In this document: one piece after another, positions 11,051-41,047 of the stretch | How the letters are laid out: every line of letters begins with the position of its first letter | Numbering within the stretch: the stretch's first letter is position 1 | Assembly: GCA_027028625.1 (NCBI GenBank) | Contig: JALVIH010000052.1 | Coordinates: forward strand, 1-49,216 | Source: a bacterium | GTDB lineage: Bacteria > Patescibacteriota > Microgenomatia > JAADGY01 | Direction: 5' to 3' | Length of the DNA stretch: 49,216 bases | The notes under the pieces: generated by a model | Told to the model about the DNA's origin: nothing | The model's input: only the letters and a program-made list of their open reading frames with translations | The model's database searches: none | Made by a program: the position numbers and the translations under genes

Positions 11051-11137
11051 TCAATTTTCAAACAATATGGAACTAGGAACTAGGGGATTAATTTTAAAAT
11101 CTTAATTTTAATTATAGGAAAGTAGCTACTTGACCGC

Positions 11138-11342
11138 GTCATCCTGAACGAGCCAAGAGGCGAAGTGAAGGATCTAGCCGAAGGCGCACGAGAGCGCTCC
11201 CAAGTATTGGTGCTAATTCTTTGCGCTACGCTAGATTCTTCACATTCGTTCAGAATGACTCCTCGAGGGGGTTATACTCTATGACTTTATGAACTTTCTA
11301 ACTTTATAAACTAAGATCTGAGTTCCGAGCTCCAACTTCTGA
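11138..11342 (+). repeat. Mosaic palindromic intergenic repeat, copy A
   Basis: Imperfect hairpin arms GTCATCCTGAACG (11138-11150) and CGTTCAGAATGAC (11247-11259). The 3' 110 nt (11231-11340) match copy B (12685-12794) with 2 mismatches. Confidence 0.85.
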
Positions 11343-12569: not shown

Positions 12570-12803
12570 GTCATCCTGAGGAGCTGGGGCGACGAAGCCC
12601 CCCTTCGGTAGGGGTAAAATCTAGCCGGAGGCGCATGAGGGTGAACCCAAGCTTGGGTGCTAATCCTTGCGCTCGCTCCGCTCGCTAGATTCTTCACATT
12701 CGTTCAGAATGACTCCTCGAGGGGGTTATACTCTATGACTTTACGAACTTTCTAACTTTATAAACTAAGATCTGAGTTCCGAGCTCCAAGTTCTAAGTTC
12801 TAA
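12570..12803 (+). repeat. Mosaic palindromic intergenic repeat, copy B
   Basis: Arms GTCATCCTGAGG (12570-12581) and CGTTCAGAATGAC (12701-12713). The 3' part is nearly identical to copy A. Ends in GTTCCGAGCTCCAAGTTCTAAGTTCTAA periodic words. Confidence 0.85.
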
Positions 12804-17071: not shown

Positions 17072-17998
17072 ATGGGGGATAACTTCCAAGCCAGCGATAA
17101 ACAATCCATAGTCCTTCTTAATGTTGATCTCCTCCAACCTAACCCTCTTCAGCCTCGAGGACATTTTGACAATAAACCGCTTAACGACCTAGTCGAATCT
17201 ATTAAAGAACACGGAGTCTTGGAACCATTAGTAGTCGCCCATACTCCTGCCGGTTACCAAATAATCGCTGGCGAAAGGCGGTGGCGGGCAGCCAAATTAG
17301 CTGGTCTCCATCAAGTACCGGCAATCATAAAAGAAACAACTCCTCAAAAGATGTTAGAGATGGCTATCGTCGAGAACGTCCAACGGGAAGATCTTAACCC
17401 CATTGAACGGGCCATTGCTTTCAAAAGGTTAATCGATGATTTCGGCCTAACTAAAGAACAAATAGCTAAACAGGTTAGCAAAAGCGTTCCTTATGTCATC
17501 AACACCCTCCGTCTCCTCGATCTCCCTGACGCCCTTAAAGACGGCTTAATTGCTGGCCTTATAACTGAGGGCCATGCTCGAGCTTTAGTAAGCATTCCGG
17601 ACAACCAAGCAATGATCCAAGCCTATAAGCAGGTTCTTAAGGAATCGGCCTCGGTTCGCCGAGCCGAAGCCATCGCTAGGTTATACAAAGAGAAGTTAAT
17701 GGGTTTAGGGGTACCCCGTTACGATTCTACCCATCCTCGTTTGGTAGATAAAAAACTCTTCATCTCCCAAAAGAAACTACCCCTCATTGCCGACAAATTA
17801 GCTACCCACCTAAAAAAGAAATTAGGTAAGAGAACAAAACTAGACATTAAACTTAGAAGAACAATCACCCGCACTCAGATCTTAATAAATATCAATGGCA
17901 ATCCTCTAGAAACCAATAATCCGGTGAGAAAACTTTTAGACCATCTCTTCGGCTCACCGAAGTGGTTAGATGACAAAGAGTTACGTGCCTCAGAATGA
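17072..17998 (+). CDS. parB: ParB/Spo0J-family partition or nucleoid-binding protein
   Basis: ParB box GVLEPLVV...YQIIAGERRWRAAKLAG and an HTH region LTKEQIAKQVSKSVPYVINTLRLL. ATG 17072 is preferred over the TTG at 17051. No parA is present in the window. Confidence 0.85.
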   Translation: MGDNFQASDKQSIVLLNVDLLQPNPLQPRGHFDNKPLNDLVESIKEHGVLEPLVVAHTPAGYQIIAGERRWRAAKLAGLHQVPAIIKETTPQKMLEMAIVENVQREDLNPIERAIAFKRLIDDFGLTKEQIAKQVSKSVPYVINTLRLLDLPDALKDGLIAGLITEGHARALVSIPDNQAMIQAYKQVLKESASVRRAEAIARLYKEKLMGLGVPRYDSTHPRLVDKKLFISQKKLPLIADKLATHLKKKLGKRTKLDIKLRRTITRTQILININGNPLETNNPVRKLLDHLFGSPKWLDDKELRASE

Positions 17999-19260
17999 AA
18001 GAGATTGAAGAGGTCTTTCAAGTTAGTGAGTTCAACGAGTTCGTCAACCAACTTCTTTCCTTTCGGGAGTATGTAGTAGAAGGTGAGATTAGCGAGTTCA
18101 ACATCAGCCGAAACAAGTGGGTTTTTATTACTCTAAAAGATCCCCAAACTGAAGAGATTCTTAATGTCTTCGCAGTCGCTTATCAAGTCCAAAGTTACCT
18201 TCCTCTTCTTCAAGTAGGAACCTTAGTTAGAGTCCAAGGGTATCCCAAGCTCCGAGGCAAAAGTGGCCGTTTCAGCCTTAACGCTTACCGAATAATTCCT
18301 GTGGGTAACGGCAGCCTCCAACAAGCCTTTCTTCAGCTAAAAGCTAAGCTGGAAGCTGAGGGTTTATTTGATCCCTCTCGAAAAAGACCTTTACCTTCTT
18401 TCCCTCAAGCCGTCTTCCTTCTCACCGCTCCAGGATCGCGGGCATACTCTGATTTTATCAAGATTACTAAGGAGCGAGGATTCGGTCAGGTTAAAATTTA
18501 TCATATTCCCATCAGCGTTCAAGGGGAACAAGCTGTTCCTTCCATTCTCAAAGCCTTTGATTTAGTCAGAAAGTATCATCATCTAGCTGATTTAGCTGTC
18601 ATCACTCGCGGGGGTGGTAGCCTGGAAGACCTTCAGGCCTTCAACCAAGAAGAGGTGGTTCGAGCTGCTTACGGACTGCCTATCCCTTTAGTCTCAGCCA
18701 TCGGCCATGAGGCTGATATCTCTCTCATTGACTACATCGCGGACAAGCGGGCTTCTACTCCCACTAACGCCGCCGAGATAGTTTTTCCAACTCTTAATGA
18801 AACTCAACAACAACTAGAACTCCTAACCAACTCTCTTAAGTACCAAATGCAAAACAAGTTCAAAAATTACTGGCACCACCTTCATCTTCTTCAAACCTCT
18901 TTAATCAATTCTTTTTCTCAACCCATTGACCGCTTAAGGAACCGTCAAGAAAAATTAGTCTCCCTTCTCAGCCTTTACAACCAGAAACTTAATTTCCGCT
19001 TTCAGCAACTAAACACCCTTTCTAGTAACTTATCTACTAAATCAAGGGATAAATACCATCAGTCATCTCTTCGCTATACTCAGTTAGTAAAACTTCTAGA
19101 ATCAGTTAGTCCAAAAACTATTCTCTCTCGAGGTTACTCAATAAGTCTTACTACTGACGGCAGAATACTCAAAAACAGTCAACAATTAAGAGTAAACCAG
19201 CCAGTCAAAACCTATCTTAAAAAGGGATCCTTCTTTTCCCAAGTCACAAAAGTAGAATAA
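17995..19260 (+). CDS. xseA: Exodeoxyribonuclease VII large subunit
   Basis: 421 aa with an N-terminal OB fold (VVEGEISEFNISRNKWVFITLKD) and a catalytic region ITRGGGSLEDLQAFN and AIGHEADISLIDYIADKRASTPTNAAE. 4-nt overlap with parB. Confidence 0.85.
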   Translation: MKEIEEVFQVSEFNEFVNQLLSFREYVVEGEISEFNISRNKWVFITLKDPQTEEILNVFAVAYQVQSYLPLLQVGTLVRVQGYPKLRGKSGRFSLNAYRIIPVGNGSLQQAFLQLKAKLEAEGLFDPSRKRPLPSFPQAVFLLTAPGSRAYSDFIKITKERGFGQVKIYHIPISVQGEQAVPSILKAFDLVRKYHHLADLAVITRGGGSLEDLQAFNQEEVVRAAYGLPIPLVSAIGHEADISLIDYIADKRASTPTNAAEIVFPTLNETQQQLELLTNSLKYQMQNKFKNYWHHLHLLQTSLINSFSQPIDRLRNRQEKLVSLLSLYNQKLNFRFQQLNTLSSNLSTKSRDKYHQSSLRYTQLVKLLESVSPKTILSRGYSISLTTDGRILKNSQQLRVNQPVKTYLKKGSFFSQVTKVE

Positions 19261-19264
19261 CTTT

Positions 19265-19293
19265 TTGACAAAACAAAAGGTTAACAGTAAAAT
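19265..19293 (+). promoter_or_regulatory. Sigma70-type promoter of the thrS leader (TTGACA-17-TAAAAT)
   Basis: TTGACA at 19265-19270, 17-nt spacer, TAAAAT at 19288-19293. Confidence 0.6.
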
Positions 19294-19301
19294 AAAAACC
19301 A

Positions 19302-19349
19302 ATGATAGAGTTAATTAACGCCACTACCCAATTAATAACTACTCCTTAA
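19302..19349 (+). CDS. Putative leaderless Thr-rich leader peptide MIELINATTQLITTP (thrS attenuator)
   Basis: ATG lies 8 nt after the -10 box. 15 codons including 4 Thr (ACT ACC; ACT ACT) and 3 Ile. Embedded in alternative helices upstream of thrS. Too short to appear in the ORF track. Confidence 0.55.
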   Translation: MIELINATTQLITTP

Positions 19350-19375
19350 AAGGGGGTAGGGTAGTGGTTAGATAC

Positions 19376-19399
19376 CCTCCCTCTTGGGGAGGTTTTTTT
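19376..19399 (+). terminator. Intrinsic terminator of the thrS leader
   Basis: CCTCCC (19376-19381) pairs with GGGAGG (19387-19392) across a 5-nt loop, followed by T7 (19393-19399). Ends 10 nt before the thrS ATG. Confidence 0.6.
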
Positions 19400-19409
19400 A
19401 TGCTTAAAA

Positions 19410-21158
19410 ATGACTGAATTGGAAAAACTTCGCCATTCTTGCGCTCACTTACTGGCCGCAGCAGTAGTTTCCCTCTGGCCAGAGGCCAAACCAACTATCG
19501 GCCCACCTATCGAGAATGGTTTCTATTATGATTTTGACCTTCCCAAACCCATCTCCCAAGACGACCTCAAAAAAATTGAGAAAAAGATGAGGGAGATTGT
19601 TAAAGATTGGAAAGAGTTTAAACGGGAAGAACTTAGTTACTCACAAGCCAAAGAACTCTTTAAAAATAATCCCTATAAATTAGAGCTAATCGAGGAACTT
19701 AAGGCCGAAAAAGCCCCCATAACTATCTACCGTTCAGGCGATTTCGTTGATCTTTGCCGCGGACCTCATATTGATGAACCTAATAAAAAATTAAGGCATT
19801 TTAAGCTTCTCTCGATTGCTGGAGCTTACTGGCGAGGAGATGAGAAAAAGAAAATGCTCACCCGAATTTATGGAACCTGTTTTCCAACAGAGGAAGAATT
19901 AAACAACTACCTTAACCAATTAGAAGAGGCAAAAAAACGAGATCATAAAAAACTCGGACCTCAATTAGACCTCTTCTTCTTCTCCCCCCTTGTTGGGCCT
20001 GGTTTGCCTCTTTGGACACCCAAGGGAACAATTTTAAGAAACCTCCTGGATGATTATGTTTGGCAACTTCGTAAAGAAAGAGGTTACACAAAAGTAACTA
20101 TCCCTTACCTAACTAAGAAGGAGCTCTACGAAACTAGCGGCCATTGGCAGAAATTCGCCGATGAGCTTTTTAAAATCAAAAGCCGTGAAGGGCATCTCTT
20201 CGCCTTAAAACCAATGAACTGCCCCCATCACACTCAGATCTATGCCCATAAGCAGCGAAGCTATCGAGAACTACCTCAACGCTATGCCGAAACTACTCAG
20301 GTTTATCGGGATGAACAAAGTGGAGAATTAGGTGGTTTAACCCGTGTCCGTTCTATAACCCAAGATGATTCCCATGTTTTTTGCCGTTATAACCAAGTTA
20401 AAGAAGAATTCCTCAGCATCTGGCAGATAATTAATATCTTCTACAAAACCTTTGGTTTTGACCTAAAACTCCGCCTTTCTTTCCATGATCCAGACCATTT
20501 TGAAAATTACCTAGGTACCCCTGAAGTTTGGAAAAAGGCGGAAAAGGATATTCAAGAAATAGCCCAAAACCAGAAAAACAGCTTTACCATTGCCAAAGGT
20601 GAAGCCGCCTTCTATGGTCCAAAGGTTGACTTTATTGTCACCGATTCCCTTGGTCGTCAGTGGCAGGTAGCCACTATTCAACTAGACATTAATATGCCGG
20701 AGCGTTTTGACCTTTTCTGTATCAATGAAAAAGGTGAGAAAGAACGAATCGTTATGATTCATGCGGCCATTATGGGTTCAATAGAGCGTTTTATTGGGAT
20801 TTTAATTGAACATTTTGCCGGTGCTTTTCCCACCTGGTTGGCACCAGAACAAGTCTGGGTTTTACCTATCAGTGAGAAACAAAACGAATACGCCCAAAAA
20901 GTTTATCTTAAGTTAAAAGAAAGCGGTTTTCGGACTAGCCTTATCTCTGAAGGTTCCCTTAGCCGCCGCTTACATTCTTTTCAAAAAATGAAGGTTCCTT
21001 ATGCTATAATACTAGGAGAAAAAGAAATGACTAATAACACAATCAGTTTACGAGACCACCAGGGAAAACAACTCCATCAGGTAAAAGTTGATCACTTACT
21101 TAAAAGGCTGAGAGATGAGGTTCAGTCCAAATCACTTAAACTTGAGCTAACTGAATGA
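19410..21158 (+). CDS. thrS: Threonyl-tRNA synthetase (no TGS domain)
   Basis: 582 aa. Starts at the editing-domain HxxxH motif (RHSCAHLL) and has a class II core (YRDEQSGELGGLTRVRSITQDDSHVF, FYGPKVDF) and a C-terminal anticodon-binding domain. Confidence 0.95.
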   Translation: MTELEKLRHSCAHLLAAAVVSLWPEAKPTIGPPIENGFYYDFDLPKPISQDDLKKIEKKMREIVKDWKEFKREELSYSQAKELFKNNPYKLELIEELKAEKAPITIYRSGDFVDLCRGPHIDEPNKKLRHFKLLSIAGAYWRGDEKKKMLTRIYGTCFPTEEELNNYLNQLEEAKKRDHKKLGPQLDLFFFSPLVGPGLPLWTPKGTILRNLLDDYVWQLRKERGYTKVTIPYLTKKELYETSGHWQKFADELFKIKSREGHLFALKPMNCPHHTQIYAHKQRSYRELPQRYAETTQVYRDEQSGELGGLTRVRSITQDDSHVFCRYNQVKEEFLSIWQIINIFYKTFGFDLKLRLSFHDPDHFENYLGTPEVWKKAEKDIQEIAQNQKNSFTIAKGEAAFYGPKVDFIVTDSLGRQWQVATIQLDINMPERFDLFCINEKGEKERIVMIHAAIMGSIERFIGILIEHFAGAFPTWLAPEQVWVLPISEKQNEYAQKVYLKLKESGFRTSLISEGSLSRRLHSFQKMKVPYAIILGEKEMTNNTISLRDHQGKQLHQVKVDHLLKRLRDEVQSKSLKLELTE

Positions 21159-21664
21159 AGAAACTGAGTTACCGCATTAATCATCAAATCCGAGCTTCCC
21201 AAGTCAGACTAATTGATGCTAGTGGAAAGCAGATAGGAGTTTTCCCTCTTAATGAAGCTCTTAAAAAGGCCCATGAATCTGACTTGGATTTAGTCGAAAT
21301 AGCTCCTAAAGCCAATCCCCCTGTAGTCAAATTAATCGACTATGCTAAGTTTAAATACCTAGAAGAAAAGAAACGGAAGAAGGAAAAACAAAAAACTAAA
21401 GCTTTAAAAGAGCTTCGCTTGACTCCCTTTATCGGAGAAAACGATCTTAACCGCCTTATCCAAAAGGCCTCTGATTTTCTCAAACAAGGACATAAAGTTA
21501 AAGTTGTGGTAAAATTTACAGGTCGGACCTTAAACTATCAAGATTTTGGCCGACAAGCGTTAGACAAAGTTATCAATCAATTAGGGGAAGTTGCCTTTGT
21601 TGAGCAACCTCCTAAAATGATTGGTAGACGGTTAATAGTTACTTTAGGAGTTAAGAAAAAATGA
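21155..21664 (+). CDS. infC: Translation initiation factor IF-3
   Basis: 169 aa: INHQIRASQVRLIDASGKQIGV...DLDLVEIAPKANPPVVKLIDYAKFKY. ATGA overlap with thrS. Confidence 0.92.
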   Translation: MKKLSYRINHQIRASQVRLIDASGKQIGVFPLNEALKKAHESDLDLVEIAPKANPPVVKLIDYAKFKYLEEKKRKKEKQKTKALKELRLTPFIGENDLNRLIQKASDFLKQGHKVKVVVKFTGRTLNYQDFGRQALDKVINQLGEVAFVEQPPKMIGRRLIVTLGVKKK

Positions 21665-21870
21665 GAAAACCAGCGAAAACAAAATTAAAAAGGCGAAAAT
21701 CTTTTTTGAAGCGCTTTAAAATAAGCGTTAATAAAAAGGTTCTTCACCGAGTTGCTTTCGGTAATCATCTTCGGCGAAAAAAAAGCAAAAGTCAACGGAG
21801 AAATTATCGGCGATTAGTTGCCCTCAAGGGTGAATGGGCTAAAAAAGTACTTAAGTTTATGGGGGTTTAA
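21661..21870 (+). CDS. rpmI: 50S ribosomal protein L35
   Basis: 69-aa, very basic ORF (KTKLKRRKSFLKRFKIS...HLRRKKSKSQRR) sitting between infC and rplT. Confidence 0.9.
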   Translation: MRKPAKTKLKRRKSFLKRFKISVNKKVLHRVAFGNHLRRKKSKSQRRNYRRLVALKGEWAKKVLKFMGV

Positions 21871-22227
21871 ATGACACGCGTAAAAACAGGAACCACCCGT
21901 CGAGCAAGACATAAGAAGATTCTCAAGATGGCTAAAGGGTACCAAATGTCCCGCCGACGGCGGTACCGAGTAGCTCATGAGACAGTTCTCCACTCTGGTC
22001 AATATGCTTTTATGGGGAGGAAACTTCGCAAACGTGACTTTCGCCGCTTATGGATTACACGATTGAATATTGCCCTCCGTCAGTTGGGAAGCAAATATTC
22101 CCAGTTTATCCATCAGTTAAAAGAAAAGAAGATAAACCTTAATCGGAAAACTCTTTCTGAGATGGCCATCAACCAACCTGAACAATTTAAAACCCTGGTT
22201 AAGTCTGTTATTGGAACTAGGAACTAG
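21871..22227 (+). CDS. rplT: 50S ribosomal protein L20
   Basis: MTRVKTGTTRRARHKKILKMAKGY...RKRDFRRLWITRLN is a canonical L20 N-terminus. Confidence 0.95.
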   Translation: MTRVKTGTTRRARHKKILKMAKGYQMSRRRRYRVAHETVLHSGQYAFMGRKLRKRDFRRLWITRLNIALRQLGSKYSQFIHQLKEKKINLNRKTLSEMAINQPEQFKTLVKSVIGTRN

Positions 22228-22291
22228 GAGCTAGGAACTAGGTAATCAGAACTCAGAACTTAGAACTTAGAATTCGGTAAGAAAACACCAA

Positions 22292-22313
22292 ACCTGCCTG
22301 CCGGCAGGCAGGT
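22292..22313. repeat. Perfect 22-nt GC-rich palindrome ACCTGCCTGCCGGCAGGCAGGT
   Basis: Self-complementary by direct reading. Lies 65 nt after the rplT stop, with no following T tract. Confidence 0.9.
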
Positions 22314-22354
22314 CCTAAATTCAAATGATCCAAATTCTAAACCCTGTCTATCGA

Positions 22355-22661
22355 GTCATTCTGAGGAGCTGAGGCAACGAAGAATCTAGCCGATAGGCGC
22401 ACGAGAGTGCTCCCAAGCTTAAGTGCTAGTAACCTTGCGCTCGCTTCCGCTCGCTAGATTCTTCGCGGGGCTCAGAATGACGCAGGAGTGGAAGGTTATA
22501 CTTTTCTCCAAGTTATCTTGAACGAGCCGCCAGGCGAAGTGAAGCCCCCCCTTCGTCGCCCCAGCTCCTCGGGATGACTCCTCAAGGGGTTCATACTTTA
22601 AAACTTTATGAACTTTTTAACTTTATAAACTAAGTTCCGAGTTCTAAGCTCCAAGTTCTGA
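22355..22661 (+). repeat. Mosaic palindromic intergenic repeat, copy C (composite)
   Basis: Perfect arms GTCATTCTGAG/CTCAGAATGAC and CGAAGAATCTAGC/GCTAGATTCTTCG enclose 22355-22481. A second half follows, built from arms seen in copies A and B, plus the TTTATGAACTTT.TAACTTTATAAACTAAG module. Confidence 0.85.
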
Positions 22662-26038: not shown

Positions 26039-26067
26039 TTGACAAGAAATATTTCTGGGGATAATAT
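26039..26067 (+). promoter_or_regulatory. Sigma70-type promoter of the tyrS-operon leader (TTGACA-17-TAATAT)
   Basis: TTGACA at 26039-26044, 17-nt spacer, TAATAT at 26062-26067, then 6 nt to ATG 26074. Confidence 0.6.
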
Positions 26068-26073
26068 AACACT

Positions 26074-26145
26074 ATGTTATTAAGTCTATCTCACACTAAC
26101 ACTTATTATTACGTTAACCTTCGGGGAGGTGGGGTAGGCAAGTAG
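26074..26145 (+). CDS. Putative leaderless Tyr-Tyr-Tyr leader peptide MLLSLSHTNTYYYVNLRGGGVGK (tyrS-operon attenuator)
   Basis: 23 codons with TAT TAT TAC at 26104-26112. Codons 19-21 encode the antiterminator strand GGTGGGG. Too short to appear in the ORF track. Confidence 0.55.
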   Translation: MLLSLSHTNTYYYVNLRGGGVGK

Positions 26146-26178
26146 TATATTTACTCCCAAAAATTTAAAAAATCAGAC

Positions 26179-26201
26179 CCCACCTTTTCGGTGGGTTTTT
26201 T
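26179..26201 (+). terminator. Intrinsic terminator of the tyrS-operon leader
   Basis: CCCACC (26179-26184) pairs with GGTGGG (26190-26195) across a 5-nt loop, then T6 (26196-26201). Ends 15 nt before the SD-led ATG at 26217. Confidence 0.6.
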
Positions 26202-26216: not shown

Positions 26217-26747
26217 ATGAAAAAAATACAAATAGGTGTCATGGGCTCTATGGCGGACATAAAACTAAGACAAACCTCAGTTGCCTTAGCTAGAGAGTTA
26301 GGGAGAGAAATAGGAAAAAGAGGAGCATTGTTAGTATTTGGTTACGAAGGGGATTTTGATTCCCTACCTGAAATAGCTGCCCGAGCAGCTGAAAAAGAGG
26401 GTGGACAAACTCTAGCCTTTCTTTGGGGAGATAACAAAAGGACAGCTAAAGATTTGTCCTCCATCAGAATAAGAACTGGGCAGATTCAAGGCGGGGGGAG
26501 AGAATTCCCCTTAGTTTTAAGCTGTGATGTTTTAATCTGCATCGGCGGCGGATCAGGAACATTAACCGAAATAGCCATAGCCTACCAAGCAAACATTCCT
26601 ATTGTGGTCTTAGCAAATTCAGGCGGTTGGAGTCAAAAACTAGCTGGTAAGTTCTTAGATGCCCGAAAAAGAGTAAAAATCACAGCAGCTAGAGATGCAG
26701 AAGAAGCTGTTAATATGGCTATCAAATTAGCAAGTTCTGTTCTATAA
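26217..26747 (+). CDS. TIGR00725/LOG-superfamily (SLOG) Rossmann protein
   Basis: 176 aa with IGVMGS at the N-terminus and ICIGGGSGTLTEIAIAY...IPIVVL (GGxGTxxE-type motif). GGGAG lies 7 nt upstream. 6 nt separate it from tyrS. Confidence 0.6.
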   Translation: MKKIQIGVMGSMADIKLRQTSVALARELGREIGKRGALLVFGYEGDFDSLPEIAARAAEKEGGQTLAFLWGDNKRTAKDLSSIRIRTGQIQGGGREFPLVLSCDVLICIGGGSGTLTEIAIAYQANIPIVVLANSGGWSQKLAGKFLDARKRVKITAARDAEEAVNMAIKLASSVL

Positions 26748-26753
26748 TAACTT

Positions 26754-27968
26754 ATGACTGTTATAACTGATGAAAAGTTAGTTGACCAGGTTCTAGATCG
26801 AGGGGTAGTAGAGATCCTGCCTTCTAAAAAGGAGTTTAAAGAACTTCTCCTCTCGGGGAAAAAAATTAGGCTTTACCTCGGTGTTGACCCGACTGGCTTT
26901 GAACTTCATCTAGGCCACTCATTAGCCTTGCGCAAACTTCAACAGTTTGCCGACCTTGGCCATGAAGTCATCCTTCTTTTGGGCACTTTTACTGGAATGA
27001 TCGGTGATCCCACCGGCAAGGACCAAACACGGACACCATTGACTTTTGAACAGATTCAAAAAAATATGGCTGATTACCAACGCCAGGCAGCCAAGATTCT
27101 TGACTTTTCCCGAGTCAAAATTAAGTACAACCACACTTGGCTGGCTAAACTTACCTTCGAAGAGATTATTAAATTAGCCGGTAACTTTACCGTTCAACAG
27201 ATGATTGAGCGGGATATGTTCCAGCGGCGATTAAAAGAAAATAAGCCTATCCACCTTCATGAGTTCTTTTACCCCTTAATGCAAGGCTACGACTCGGTCG
27301 CTATGGACGTTGATCTGGAAATTGGCGGCACTGATCAAACCTTTAATATGTTGGCCGGGCGGACCTTGATGAAAAAAATAAGGAATAAAGATAAGTTTGT
27401 TTTAACAATTCCTCTTTTGTTAGGCTTAGACGGCCGCAAAATGAGTAAAACTTACAACAACTACATCTCATTAACAGACAGTCCTCAGGATGTTTATGGC
27501 AAGACTATGCGCCTTCAAGACGAGCTGATTATTGATTGGTTTAAACTTCTTACTGACTTGCCGACAGAGGAAATAGAAGAGATGAAGCAAAAGATGAAAA
27601 AAGGCCAACTCAATCCAATGGAAGCAAAAAAACGTTTAGCTTTCATTCTGACTAGCTGGCTGCACAATGAAAAAGAGGCTCGAAAAGCCCAGCTTTACTT
27701 CGAGGATGTTTACCAAAAAAGACAACTCCCCCAAACTATTGAGGAAGTAAATCTAAAAGCAGACAAATATTCTCTTTTAACTCTCTTAAAGCAGCTGCCA
27801 ACCTCCCTTTCCAGCCGAAAGTTAAAACAATTAATCCTTCAAGGGGGGATAAGGCTCAACCAAAAAGTTGTTAATAACCCCACCAAAATAATAGAACTAA
27901 AAGAAGGAGAAAAAATCACTTTAAAAATAGGCAAACATTTATTTTTAAACTTAAAGGGGACCAAATGA
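26754..27968 (+). CDS. tyrS: Tyrosyl-tRNA synthetase
   Basis: 404 aa with the HIGH motif as ELHLGHS, KMSKS as KMSKT, and a C-terminal S4-like domain (SSRKLKQLILQGGIRLNQKVV). Confidence 0.95.
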   Translation: MTVITDEKLVDQVLDRGVVEILPSKKEFKELLLSGKKIRLYLGVDPTGFELHLGHSLALRKLQQFADLGHEVILLLGTFTGMIGDPTGKDQTRTPLTFEQIQKNMADYQRQAAKILDFSRVKIKYNHTWLAKLTFEEIIKLAGNFTVQQMIERDMFQRRLKENKPIHLHEFFYPLMQGYDSVAMDVDLEIGGTDQTFNMLAGRTLMKKIRNKDKFVLTIPLLLGLDGRKMSKTYNNYISLTDSPQDVYGKTMRLQDELIIDWFKLLTDLPTEEIEEMKQKMKKGQLNPMEAKKRLAFILTSWLHNEKEARKAQLYFEDVYQKRQLPQTIEEVNLKADKYSLLTLLKQLPTSLSSRKLKQLILQGGIRLNQKVVNNPTKIIELKEGEKITLKIGKHLFLNLKGTK

Positions 27969-40789: not shown

Positions 40790-41047
40790 ATGTTAACTCT
40801 AAAACTAAGGAGAAGCGGTCGAAAAGGACTGCCTTTTTATCATCTAGTCGTTGCAGAAAAAAGATCTAAAGTCTTGGGTAAATTCCGAGACAAGATAGGT
40901 TACTATAACCCCCTTGATGAGAAGGATGGCTTTAAGCTCGACCAGAAAAAACTCACTTATTGGTTGTCTCAAGGAGTTATACTAAGTGAGGGCATTAGAA
41001 AATTATTTAAACATTTTAAGGTAAAAACAAATGTCGGAACTAACTGA
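40790..41047 (+). CDS. rpsP: 30S ribosomal protein S16
   Basis: MLTLKLRRSGRKGLPFYHLVVAEKRSK...IGYYNP. Confidence 0.95.
   Translation: MLTLKLRRSGRKGLPFYHLVVAEKRSKVLGKFRDKIGYYNPLDEKDGFKLDQKKLTYWLSQGVILSEGIRKLFKHFKVKTNVGTN

Follow-up and report, generated by a model that had tools for sequence, protein, structure and literature searches.

We examined a 49,216-nt stretch of DNA from a bacterium of the Patescibacteriota (Microgenomatia), covering contig JALVIH010000052.1 of assembly GCA_027028625.1 from position 1 to 49,216; this whole stretch is called the window below. Patescibacteria, or candidate-phyla-radiation (CPR) bacteria, are uncultured, have tiny genomes and are mostly unable to make amino acids; their gene regulation is almost uncharted. 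The subject of this report is a leader region (19262-19420) that lies between xseA (17995-19260) and thrS (19410-21158), the gene for threonine--tRNA ligase. The region and the genes that follow it hold these features, where ORF stands for open reading frame:

19265-19293, + strand: sigma-70-type promoter, TTGACA (19265-19270), 17 nt, TAAAAT (19288-19293); 11 of 12 consensus positions
19302-19349, + strand: leader ORF MIELINATTQLITTP (thrL-like), 15 codons; Thr codons at 19323-19328 and 19338-19343, stop codon TAA at 19347-19349
19320-19347, + strand: segment 1, the 5' side of the 1:2 hairpin, made up of an outer arm (19320-19329) and an inner arm (19340-19347); from the minimum free energy (MFE) fold, a subsequence fold and the RNAalifold consensus of 8 relatives
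19351-19368, + strand: segment 2, the 3' arm of the 1:2 hairpin; 19351-19363 doubles as the antiterminator 5' arm; holds the family-invariant GGGGTAGGGTAGTGGT
19373-19384, + strand: segment 3, the antiterminator 3' arm (partner 19351-19363), overlapping the terminator 5' arm 19376-19382; from constrained folds
19376-19399, + strand: intrinsic terminator, stem 19376-19382/19386-19392 (7 bp), loop CTT, T7 at 19393-19399; from folding and a site scan
19410-21158, + strand: thrS, threonine--tRNA ligase, 582 aa, the putatively regulated gene; Pfam, and NCBIfam TIGR00418 at 671.7 bits against a cut-off of 383.65
21155-22227, + strand: infC, rpmI and rplT directly behind thrS, packed or overlapping (4-nt overlaps, 0-nt gaps)

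The promoter, the ATG at 19302, the leader ORF, its Thr codons and the terminator with its T7 had been read from the sequence in a preliminary description, and all of them are present at the coordinates given there. The TTGACA/TAAAAT pair is the best promoter-like site within 18800-19800. ATG 19302 begins 8 nt past the -10 box with no Shine-Dalgarno (SD) sequence, and an in-frame TAA at 19293-19295 upstream of it rules out an earlier start of the ORF. From this promoter geometry the thrS leader mRNA is predicted to be leaderless, with transcription starting at 19300-19302. The CCTCCCT/GGGGAGG hairpin with its T7 is the sole terminator-like site in 18800-19800 and among very few intergenic terminators in the 49 kb. 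A scan of 18800-19800 found no second promoter-like site between terminator and thrS, and the 10 nt from the T tract to the thrS ATG are too short for a promoter; transcription of thrS would therefore have to pass through the terminator.

The unconstrained MFE fold of the leader is a long interrupted hairpin followed by the terminator (-35.8 kcal/mol, z = -2.7, matched by 3 of 200 shuffles). The long hairpin joins segments 1 and 2 through an outer helix (19320-19329:19359-19368) and an inner helix (19340-19347:19351-19358), the latter including the second Thr codon pair; both Thr pairs thus fall within segment 1. Helix 1:2 had earlier been given as a single shorter pairing: it is present in the unconstrained fold, but it is longer than claimed and has the extra inner helix. 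Likewise, helix 2:3 forms in constrained folds and extends to 12 bp with one bulged U (19351-19363:19373-19384) where 9 bp had been claimed. The leader stop codon, which had been placed 5-10 nt before segment 2, is found in the 1:2 hairpin's apical loop, 1 nt 5' of the 3' arm, a corrected position that still fits attenuation. In subsequence folds the stabilities ranked 1:2 (-23.6 kcal/mol) > 2:3 (-17.4) > 3:4 (-10.9), which is the order required by a classical attenuator.

We consider it likely, from the sequence and from modelled folds, that the region works as a transcription attenuator of the ribosome-mediated (leader-peptide) type, sensing charged tRNA-Thr and controlling thrS. Probably it also controls infC-rpmI-rplT: these genes are presumably co-transcribed with thrS, to judge from their overlaps and gaps, and hence would also be under the attenuator. 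We infer the transcription start, translation of the leader, transcription-translation coupling and termination in vivo from the arrangement of the elements. Transcription would start at or 1-2 nt before ATG 19302, producing a leaderless mRNA, and a ribosome would translate the 15-codon leader. With ample Thr-tRNA(Thr), the ribosome would reach the stop codon in the 1:2 loop and its footprint would cover the 5' part of segment 2 (19351 onward); with segment 2 covered no antiterminator could form, the 3:4 hairpin with its U7 would, and RNA polymerase would terminate 10 nt before thrS. With scarce Thr-tRNA(Thr), for example when the activity of threonyl-tRNA synthetase (ThrRS) is too low, the ribosome would stall on Thr codons 8-9 or 13-14 and occlude segment 1. 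Segment 2 would then be free, and the stronger 2:3 antiterminator would sequester the terminator 5' arm and let transcription enter thrS. Untranslated RNA, including read-through from xseA, would fold into 1:2 and 3:4 and terminate.

The preliminary description had proposed looking among relatives for a Thr-rich mini-ORF together with the alternative helices. Such a comparison yielded 12 distinct leader versions upstream of thrS, from at least 5 CPR lineages, in which frame and geometry are kept; a 1-nt variant (L074) was included additionally in folding. The ThrS relatives place the organism of the window among the CPR/Patescibacteria as a Microgenomates-like member. Leaders were analysed sequence by sequence because plain MAFFT alignment misregisters their 5' parts, in which the promoter-to-ATG spacing is 7 or 8 nt. 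The leader unit stands immediately upstream of thrS in 7 of 7 relatives with 73-92% ThrS identity. Among these relatives the flanking intergenic DNA is fully diverged and the upstream gene is different or inverted. Near-invariant in this close family are GGGGTAGGGT followed by [A/G]GT[A/G]GT, and CCCTCCC...GGAGG with T6-7. In L074 a single C-to-T change in segment 3 leaves both alternative pairings in place as G-U. Leaders that diverge in sequence and are identical in architecture were found in four further lineages. The leader peptides, each ending at a stop codon, read as follows (L numbers are our locus labels):

L003 and L073: MIELITTTTKLVTTP
L075: MLNPKTTTTTTFITL
L077: MLFYSLPATIVNLTPTSH
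L001: MQLNYRPTTTLSTATV
L002: MLSTANHTTILFTTA
L078: MLVSNNLTTTTTTTA
L042 (= L121), Pacebacteria: MLIRLSLAATTTTR
L083, Roizmanbacteria: MITTTDRITTATDIIR
L084, Roizmanbacteria-like, a Logan contig with the gene order of L083: MFLTSKIITATICIR
L094, metagenome contig: GTG-IRLSTTTTTTNP
L018, Peribacteria: GTG-QISLTTTTTTTSSSEGC

The -35/-10 pair is kept in all 12 leaders, the -10 hexamer ends 6-8 nt before the ATG or GTG, and none has an SD. All 12 have an ORF of 13-18 codons, a stop codon in or next to the 1:2 hairpin loop and an antiterminator that overlaps the terminator, so that the alternative helices are retained in lineages of differing sequence. A covariance model was built from the close thrS-leader family and searched over ~0.83 Mb. 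It recovered L084 (30.9 bits) and L042 (22.9 bits), matched L083 weakly (18.5 bits, E = 0.15) and L094 likewise (16.9 bits, E = 0.44), and gave good scores only at leaders upstream of thrS; nothing comparable was found elsewhere in the ~0.83 Mb. Two further matches, upstream of Nomurabacteria thrS (L062 and L136), were rejected as non-members: they are G/C-rich hairpins without a Thr ORF. A pattern scan of metagenome DNA for GGGGTAGGGTRGTRGT-N4-20-CCCTCCC gave 0 matches. A protein-based metagenome scan returned only relatives of at most 61% identity, one of which carries a new Thr leader (L094).

Behind the Thr leader of L083 (1047-4137) and L084 (1032-4137) come thrS, a gene for a 209-aa protein without known function, and a gene for threonine synthase (Thr_synth_N/PALP), so at these two loci the synthetase and an enzyme of Thr biosynthesis may share a single Thr attenuator.

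The genomic setting also bears on whether the unit belongs to thrS at all. Promoter, ~98 nt of RNA and terminator make up a complete transcription unit, and the hairpin would also end xseA transcripts, as would be expected of a stand-alone small gene (a small RNA or a 15-aa peptide) that adjoins thrS, or of an xseA terminator next to a fortuitous promoter. However, the unit stays beside thrS where the upstream gene changes or inverts (L075, L078, L083), and in the window, L002 and L078 the thrS ATG follows the T tract by just 10-11 nt, which leaves thrS no promoter of its own there. The peptide is unconserved except for Thr, and conservation does cover the alternative pairing that abolishes the terminator. 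We regard such an independent unit as extremely improbable.

Consistent with a sensor of charged tRNA-Thr, Thr takes up 63 of the 173 codons (36%) in the 12 distinct leaders, compared to 5.6% in window proteins. The window leader has 4 Thr codons among its 15, and CPR leaders overall have 3-7. AC dinucleotides fall into frames 0, 1 and 2 in the numbers 63, 7 and 3; all four ACN codons occur, and apart from Thr the leader peptide is not conserved. We also surveyed 121 CPR thrS loci for residue-rich short ORFs with a terminator: Thr gave 14 loci, and any other amino acid at most 5.

To mimic the ribosome footprint, leaders were folded with the 5' part masked up to 10-14 nt beyond the A-site codon. 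For the window leader the probability of the terminator was 0.92 in free RNA, dropped to 0.01 with the A site on Thr8, 0.00 on Thr9, 0.00 on Thr13 and 0.13 on Thr14, and was 0.91 at the stop codon. Constrained folds thus gave the antiterminator on Thr codons and the terminator at the stop, and the logic of ribosome-mediated attenuation put forward in the preliminary description holds in them. The remaining leaders, divergent ones included, behaved similarly: terminator probability was high in free RNA, low on Thr codons, and between 0.52 (L078) and 1.00 at the stop. (For the window and L078 these values were computed with explicitly set terminator pairs.) For L018 and L042, the stretch over which termination is low matches the Thr run almost exactly. 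When the terminator was retained and the upstream portion was dinucleotide-shuffled (100 trials per leader), 0-6 of 100 shuffles per leader reached the observed switch score; for the window leader it was 0 of 100.

An amino-acid-agnostic scan of the window and all 160 loci (both strands, ~0.86 Mb) looked for a sigma-70 promoter with a start codon 5-9 nt past its -10 box, opening an 8-35-codon ORF in which any residue forms a run, and for a terminator at most 90 nt on. It returned only Thr leaders before thrS and one other unit, with no false positives. These results bear on chance as an explanation, in which an AT-rich intergenic region would happen to hold a short ORF and complementary runs. 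Short ORFs and complementarities of 6-9 bp are indeed common anywhere, and a fold z of -2.7 is modest; yet 12 distinct conserved leaders, the frame bias, the shuffle results and the clean scan stand against coincidence, which the comparative data effectively refute.

The other unit found by the scan is a Tyr leader:

26039-26201: Tyr leader unit; promoter 26039-26067 (TTGACA, 17 nt, TAATAT), then 6 nt; ORF 26074-26145; terminator 26179-26195 with T6

Its ORF, MLLSLSHTNTYYYVNLRGGGVGK up to the stop, has leaderless geometry and carries a Tyr-Tyr-Tyr run, and a G-rich stretch of the unit complements the 5' arm of its terminator (26179-26195). Downstream lie a LOG-like gene (26217-26747; TIGR00725) and tyrS (26754-27968; TIGR00234, 364 bits). 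The unit is kept in L158, a 92% relative and the one close relative sampled, where the peptide reads MLLSLSHTNTYYYINHWGSGVGK. Footprint folding gave terminator probabilities of at most 0.15 in free RNA or when stalled at Tyr codons, and 0.87 with a ribosome past codon 15. The folds predict read-through upon a stall at Tyr codons and termination once the ribosome is beyond codon 15, a logic slightly unlike that of the Thr leader. Two of the three aminoacyl-tRNA synthetase (aaRS) genes of the window are thus wired with cognate-codon leaders, Thr before thrS and Tyr before tyrS, which to us is the best reason to think that ribosomes read the ORFs and that these are more than pairing partners. The third, ileS, lies 20 nt behind the preceding gene and has no leader.

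As a separate observation, tyrS might also have a leaderless promoter to itself, since a TATAAT stands 5 nt ahead of its ATG.

Since thrS is under a T-box in Bacillus and under a ThrRS-binding operator in E. coli, we weighed a switch that works without translation. In such a switch ACC/ACU would act as a T-box-like specifier for the tRNA-Thr anticodon, or ThrRS would bind to the leader in the manner seen with the E. coli thrS operator, and either would shift the balance between terminator and antiterminator. The antiterminator loop does contain UGGU, a possible partner of an ACCA 3' end, as well as GGU, a Thr anticodon. In addition, a reduced T-box stands at ~11 of the 121 surveyed CPR thrS loci. 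However, this is the only loop with a GGU/UGGU motif, and it differs in size and sequence among close relatives. RF00230 (T-box) gave no match in 19150-19500 at E <= 10, with neither GGUGGNACCGCG nor GGTGGNACCGCG present. A T-box resembles the CPR leader in sensing tRNA-Thr charging through a terminator/antiterminator switch upstream of thrS (as in Bacillus), but it binds uncharged tRNA directly and uses no ORF or ribosome; our leader has neither its conserved motif nor its Stem I. The E. coli thrS operator likewise exerts feedback on thrS through 5' RNA structure; there, ThrRS binds mimics of the anticodon arm and blocks ribosome binding. In our leader control would act at the terminator, and none of the loops is a conserved 7-nt mimic of an anticodon loop: those of the hairpins read AAA and CUU, and the 9-nt antiterminator loop is unconserved in size and sequence. 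A switch of either kind would also leave unexplained the start 6-8 nt past the -10 box, the 63/7/3 frame bias, the stop codon in or next to the loop, and the Tyr leader before tyrS. We judge it very unlikely, and retain ribosome-mediated attenuation as the preferred reading.

The reduced T-box-like leaders (GGTGGAACCGCG) are found at 11 of the 121 CPR loci (L009, L013, L022, L026, L049, L055, L060, L064, L087, L093 and L118), with thrS starting ~90-190 nt downstream. L022 matched RF00230 at 28.9 bits (E = 8.8e-5), far under the gathering score of 93, so that elements of this kind are missed by standard Rfam annotation. From their distribution, T-box and leader-peptide sensors appear to replace each other on thrS within the CPR radiation, so that a swap between the two sensors would be documented for one gene within one radiation.

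Several points weigh against the proposed attenuator. The occlusion folds describe equilibrium and ignore kinetics. The helices of the close family are almost invariant and covariation is consequently thin: RNAalifold counted double changes at 3 pairs, and its covariation term was -0.03. The distribution is patchy, as L080 and L081 (~65% ThrS identity) are without the leader element. The leaders of L077 and L084 have just 3 Thr codons each. Because ACN complements the GU-rich segment 2, pairing alone could explain part of the Thr enrichment. Finally, we know of no demonstration of either transcription-translation coupling or leaderless initiation in CPR bacteria.

In L081, at ~1110-1197 and ending 2 nt before the thrS ATG, we noted by eye, where a leader would be, what resembles a tRNA, its anticodon loop GAC (Val) and its end CCA.

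With respect to leaderless initiation, hexamers resembling a -10 box cluster 5-9 nt before start codons of the window (for example 4569, 4331(-), 25612, 26754, 15067(-) and 34036(-)), and an SD-like motif precedes only about a quarter of its genes. To judge from these start sites, leaderless mRNAs seem common in this CPR genome.

A further apparent leaderless start was seen at a short ORF (MLTLKLRRSGRKGLPFYHLVVAEKRSK...; 40790 to ~41030, + strand), which by eye resembles ribosomal protein S16 and falls below the 90-aa listing threshold: a TACAAT lies 6 nt before its ATG. The terminator-like hairpin inside this ORF (40815-40832) is probably due to chance.

In the proposed mechanism the element would work like the trp, thr, his and phe attenuators, and in E. 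coli a cognate leader peptide controls pheST. It is a textbook mechanism and no new principle; the leader element is new for CPR bacteria and absent from Rfam. At gathering score Rfam returned no family in the whole window and none in 10 related loci, and ARAGORN found no tRNA. Weak generic Rfam matches at E <= 10 (PyrR and others, with Phe_leader as the sole leader family, at 22.5 bits where its gathering score is 55) were rejected as non-members. The E. coli thr attenuator (thrL; RF00506, Thr_leader) resembles the CPR leader in its short Thr-rich peptide, its 1:2, 2:3 and 3:4 hairpins, its intrinsic terminator and read-through upon a Thr stall. Unlike the CPR leader, thrL regulates biosynthesis (thrABC) rather than a synthetase, has an SD and also contains Ile codons; RF00506 gave no match at E <= 10, so sequence or covariance-model similarity is lacking. 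E. coli pheM-pheST is likewise a leader-peptide attenuator that acts on an aaRS through cognate codons, and it belongs to the same conserved gene neighbourhood, thrS-infC-rpmI-rplT-pheST. In contrast to the CPR leader, pheM senses Phe, is SD-led and is located after rplT, not before thrS.

Leaders of comparable design have been proposed in other phyla. Leaderless leaders have been predicted before alaS, thrS, trpS and leuS in Streptomyces lividans (PMC8079986), leader peptides before Streptomyces trpS and leuS (PMC1262725), and 14 leaderless leaders, for example before cysS, in Deinococcus deserti (PMC4007540). They share with the CPR leaders the ORF at the transcript 5' end (predicted in CPR), the cognate codons and the position upstream of an aaRS gene, which in one S. 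lividans case is thrS itself; they belong to other phyla and do not resemble the CPR leaders in sequence. In S. lividans, thrL carries just two Thr codons, and a clear U-rich terminator could not be found (PMC8079986); the CPR element, with its 3-7 Thr codons, canonical terminator and fully resolvable three-helix scheme, is a far cleaner case. The statement in the preliminary description that no described Thr-leader attenuator for thrS was known was too strong, given the leaderless Thr leader proposed in S. lividans (PMC8079986) and the leaderless leaders of aaRS genes proposed in D. deserti (PMC4007540). Our literature searches found no relevant report of a leader peptide, attenuator or T-box in CPR bacteria or Patescibacteria.

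If the thrS and tyrS units work as attenuators, CPR bacteria would tune synthetase levels to tRNA charging. The thrS element also suggests that leaderless translation and transcription-translation coupling operate in CPR cells, and its leader family could be added to Rfam. A broader proposal, which we make tentatively and which may or may not hold, is that leaderless leader peptides with cognate codons serve Microgenomates and some other CPR bacteria as a general sensor for the expression of aaRS genes, in the role that T-boxes have in Firmicutes. Were that so, it would imply efficient leaderless 70S initiation and tight transcription-translation coupling in ultra-small cells. The ratio of leader to gene read-through in metatranscriptomes would then mark the amino acids that are limiting in situ, such as threonine or tyrosine.

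Between the T tract and the body of thrS lies one more feature of the leader region:

19400-19417, + strand: mini-ORF ATGCTTAAAAATGACTGA (MLKND, then stop), five codons, 7 nt past the GGAGG of the terminator 3' arm and overlapping the thrS ATG; function doubtful

As an addition compatible with attenuation, GGAGG (19388-19392), freed in the read-through RNA, could drive translation of this mini-ORF, and termination at its stop codon (19415-19417) could lead to reinitiation at the SD-less thrS ATG 19410. Such coupling had been suggested in the preliminary description. The mini-ORF does exist, with GGAGG 7 nt before ATG 19400, a stop codon overlapping the thrS start and no SD for thrS itself, and it is retained in L003, L073 and L074. 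However, these three diverge by just ~8% in ThrS, and beyond this clade of 92% identity the coupling finds no support: L001, L002, L075, L077 and L078 have no mini-ORF and their thrS is equally SD-less. Most window genes are without an SD as well, and the GGAGG is accounted for by its terminator pairing with CCCUCC. We consider this coupling unlikely.

Behind the operon, a perfect GC-rich palindrome (AAACCTGCCTGCCGGCAGGCAGGTCC; 22290-22315) lies 63 nt past rplT, at the start of a 575-nt gap without genes; it is possibly a bidirectional terminator of the thrS operon.

Elsewhere in the window, a 112-nt intergenic repeat occurs in three copies (11229-11340, 12683-12794 and 22548-22659), with identities to the reference copy of 98% and 75%. 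The low-complexity sequences aactaggagctagg and gttccgagttctaag flank it, and there is further similarity between 11130-11230 and 22350-22450. The repeat may be a small mobile or structured element.

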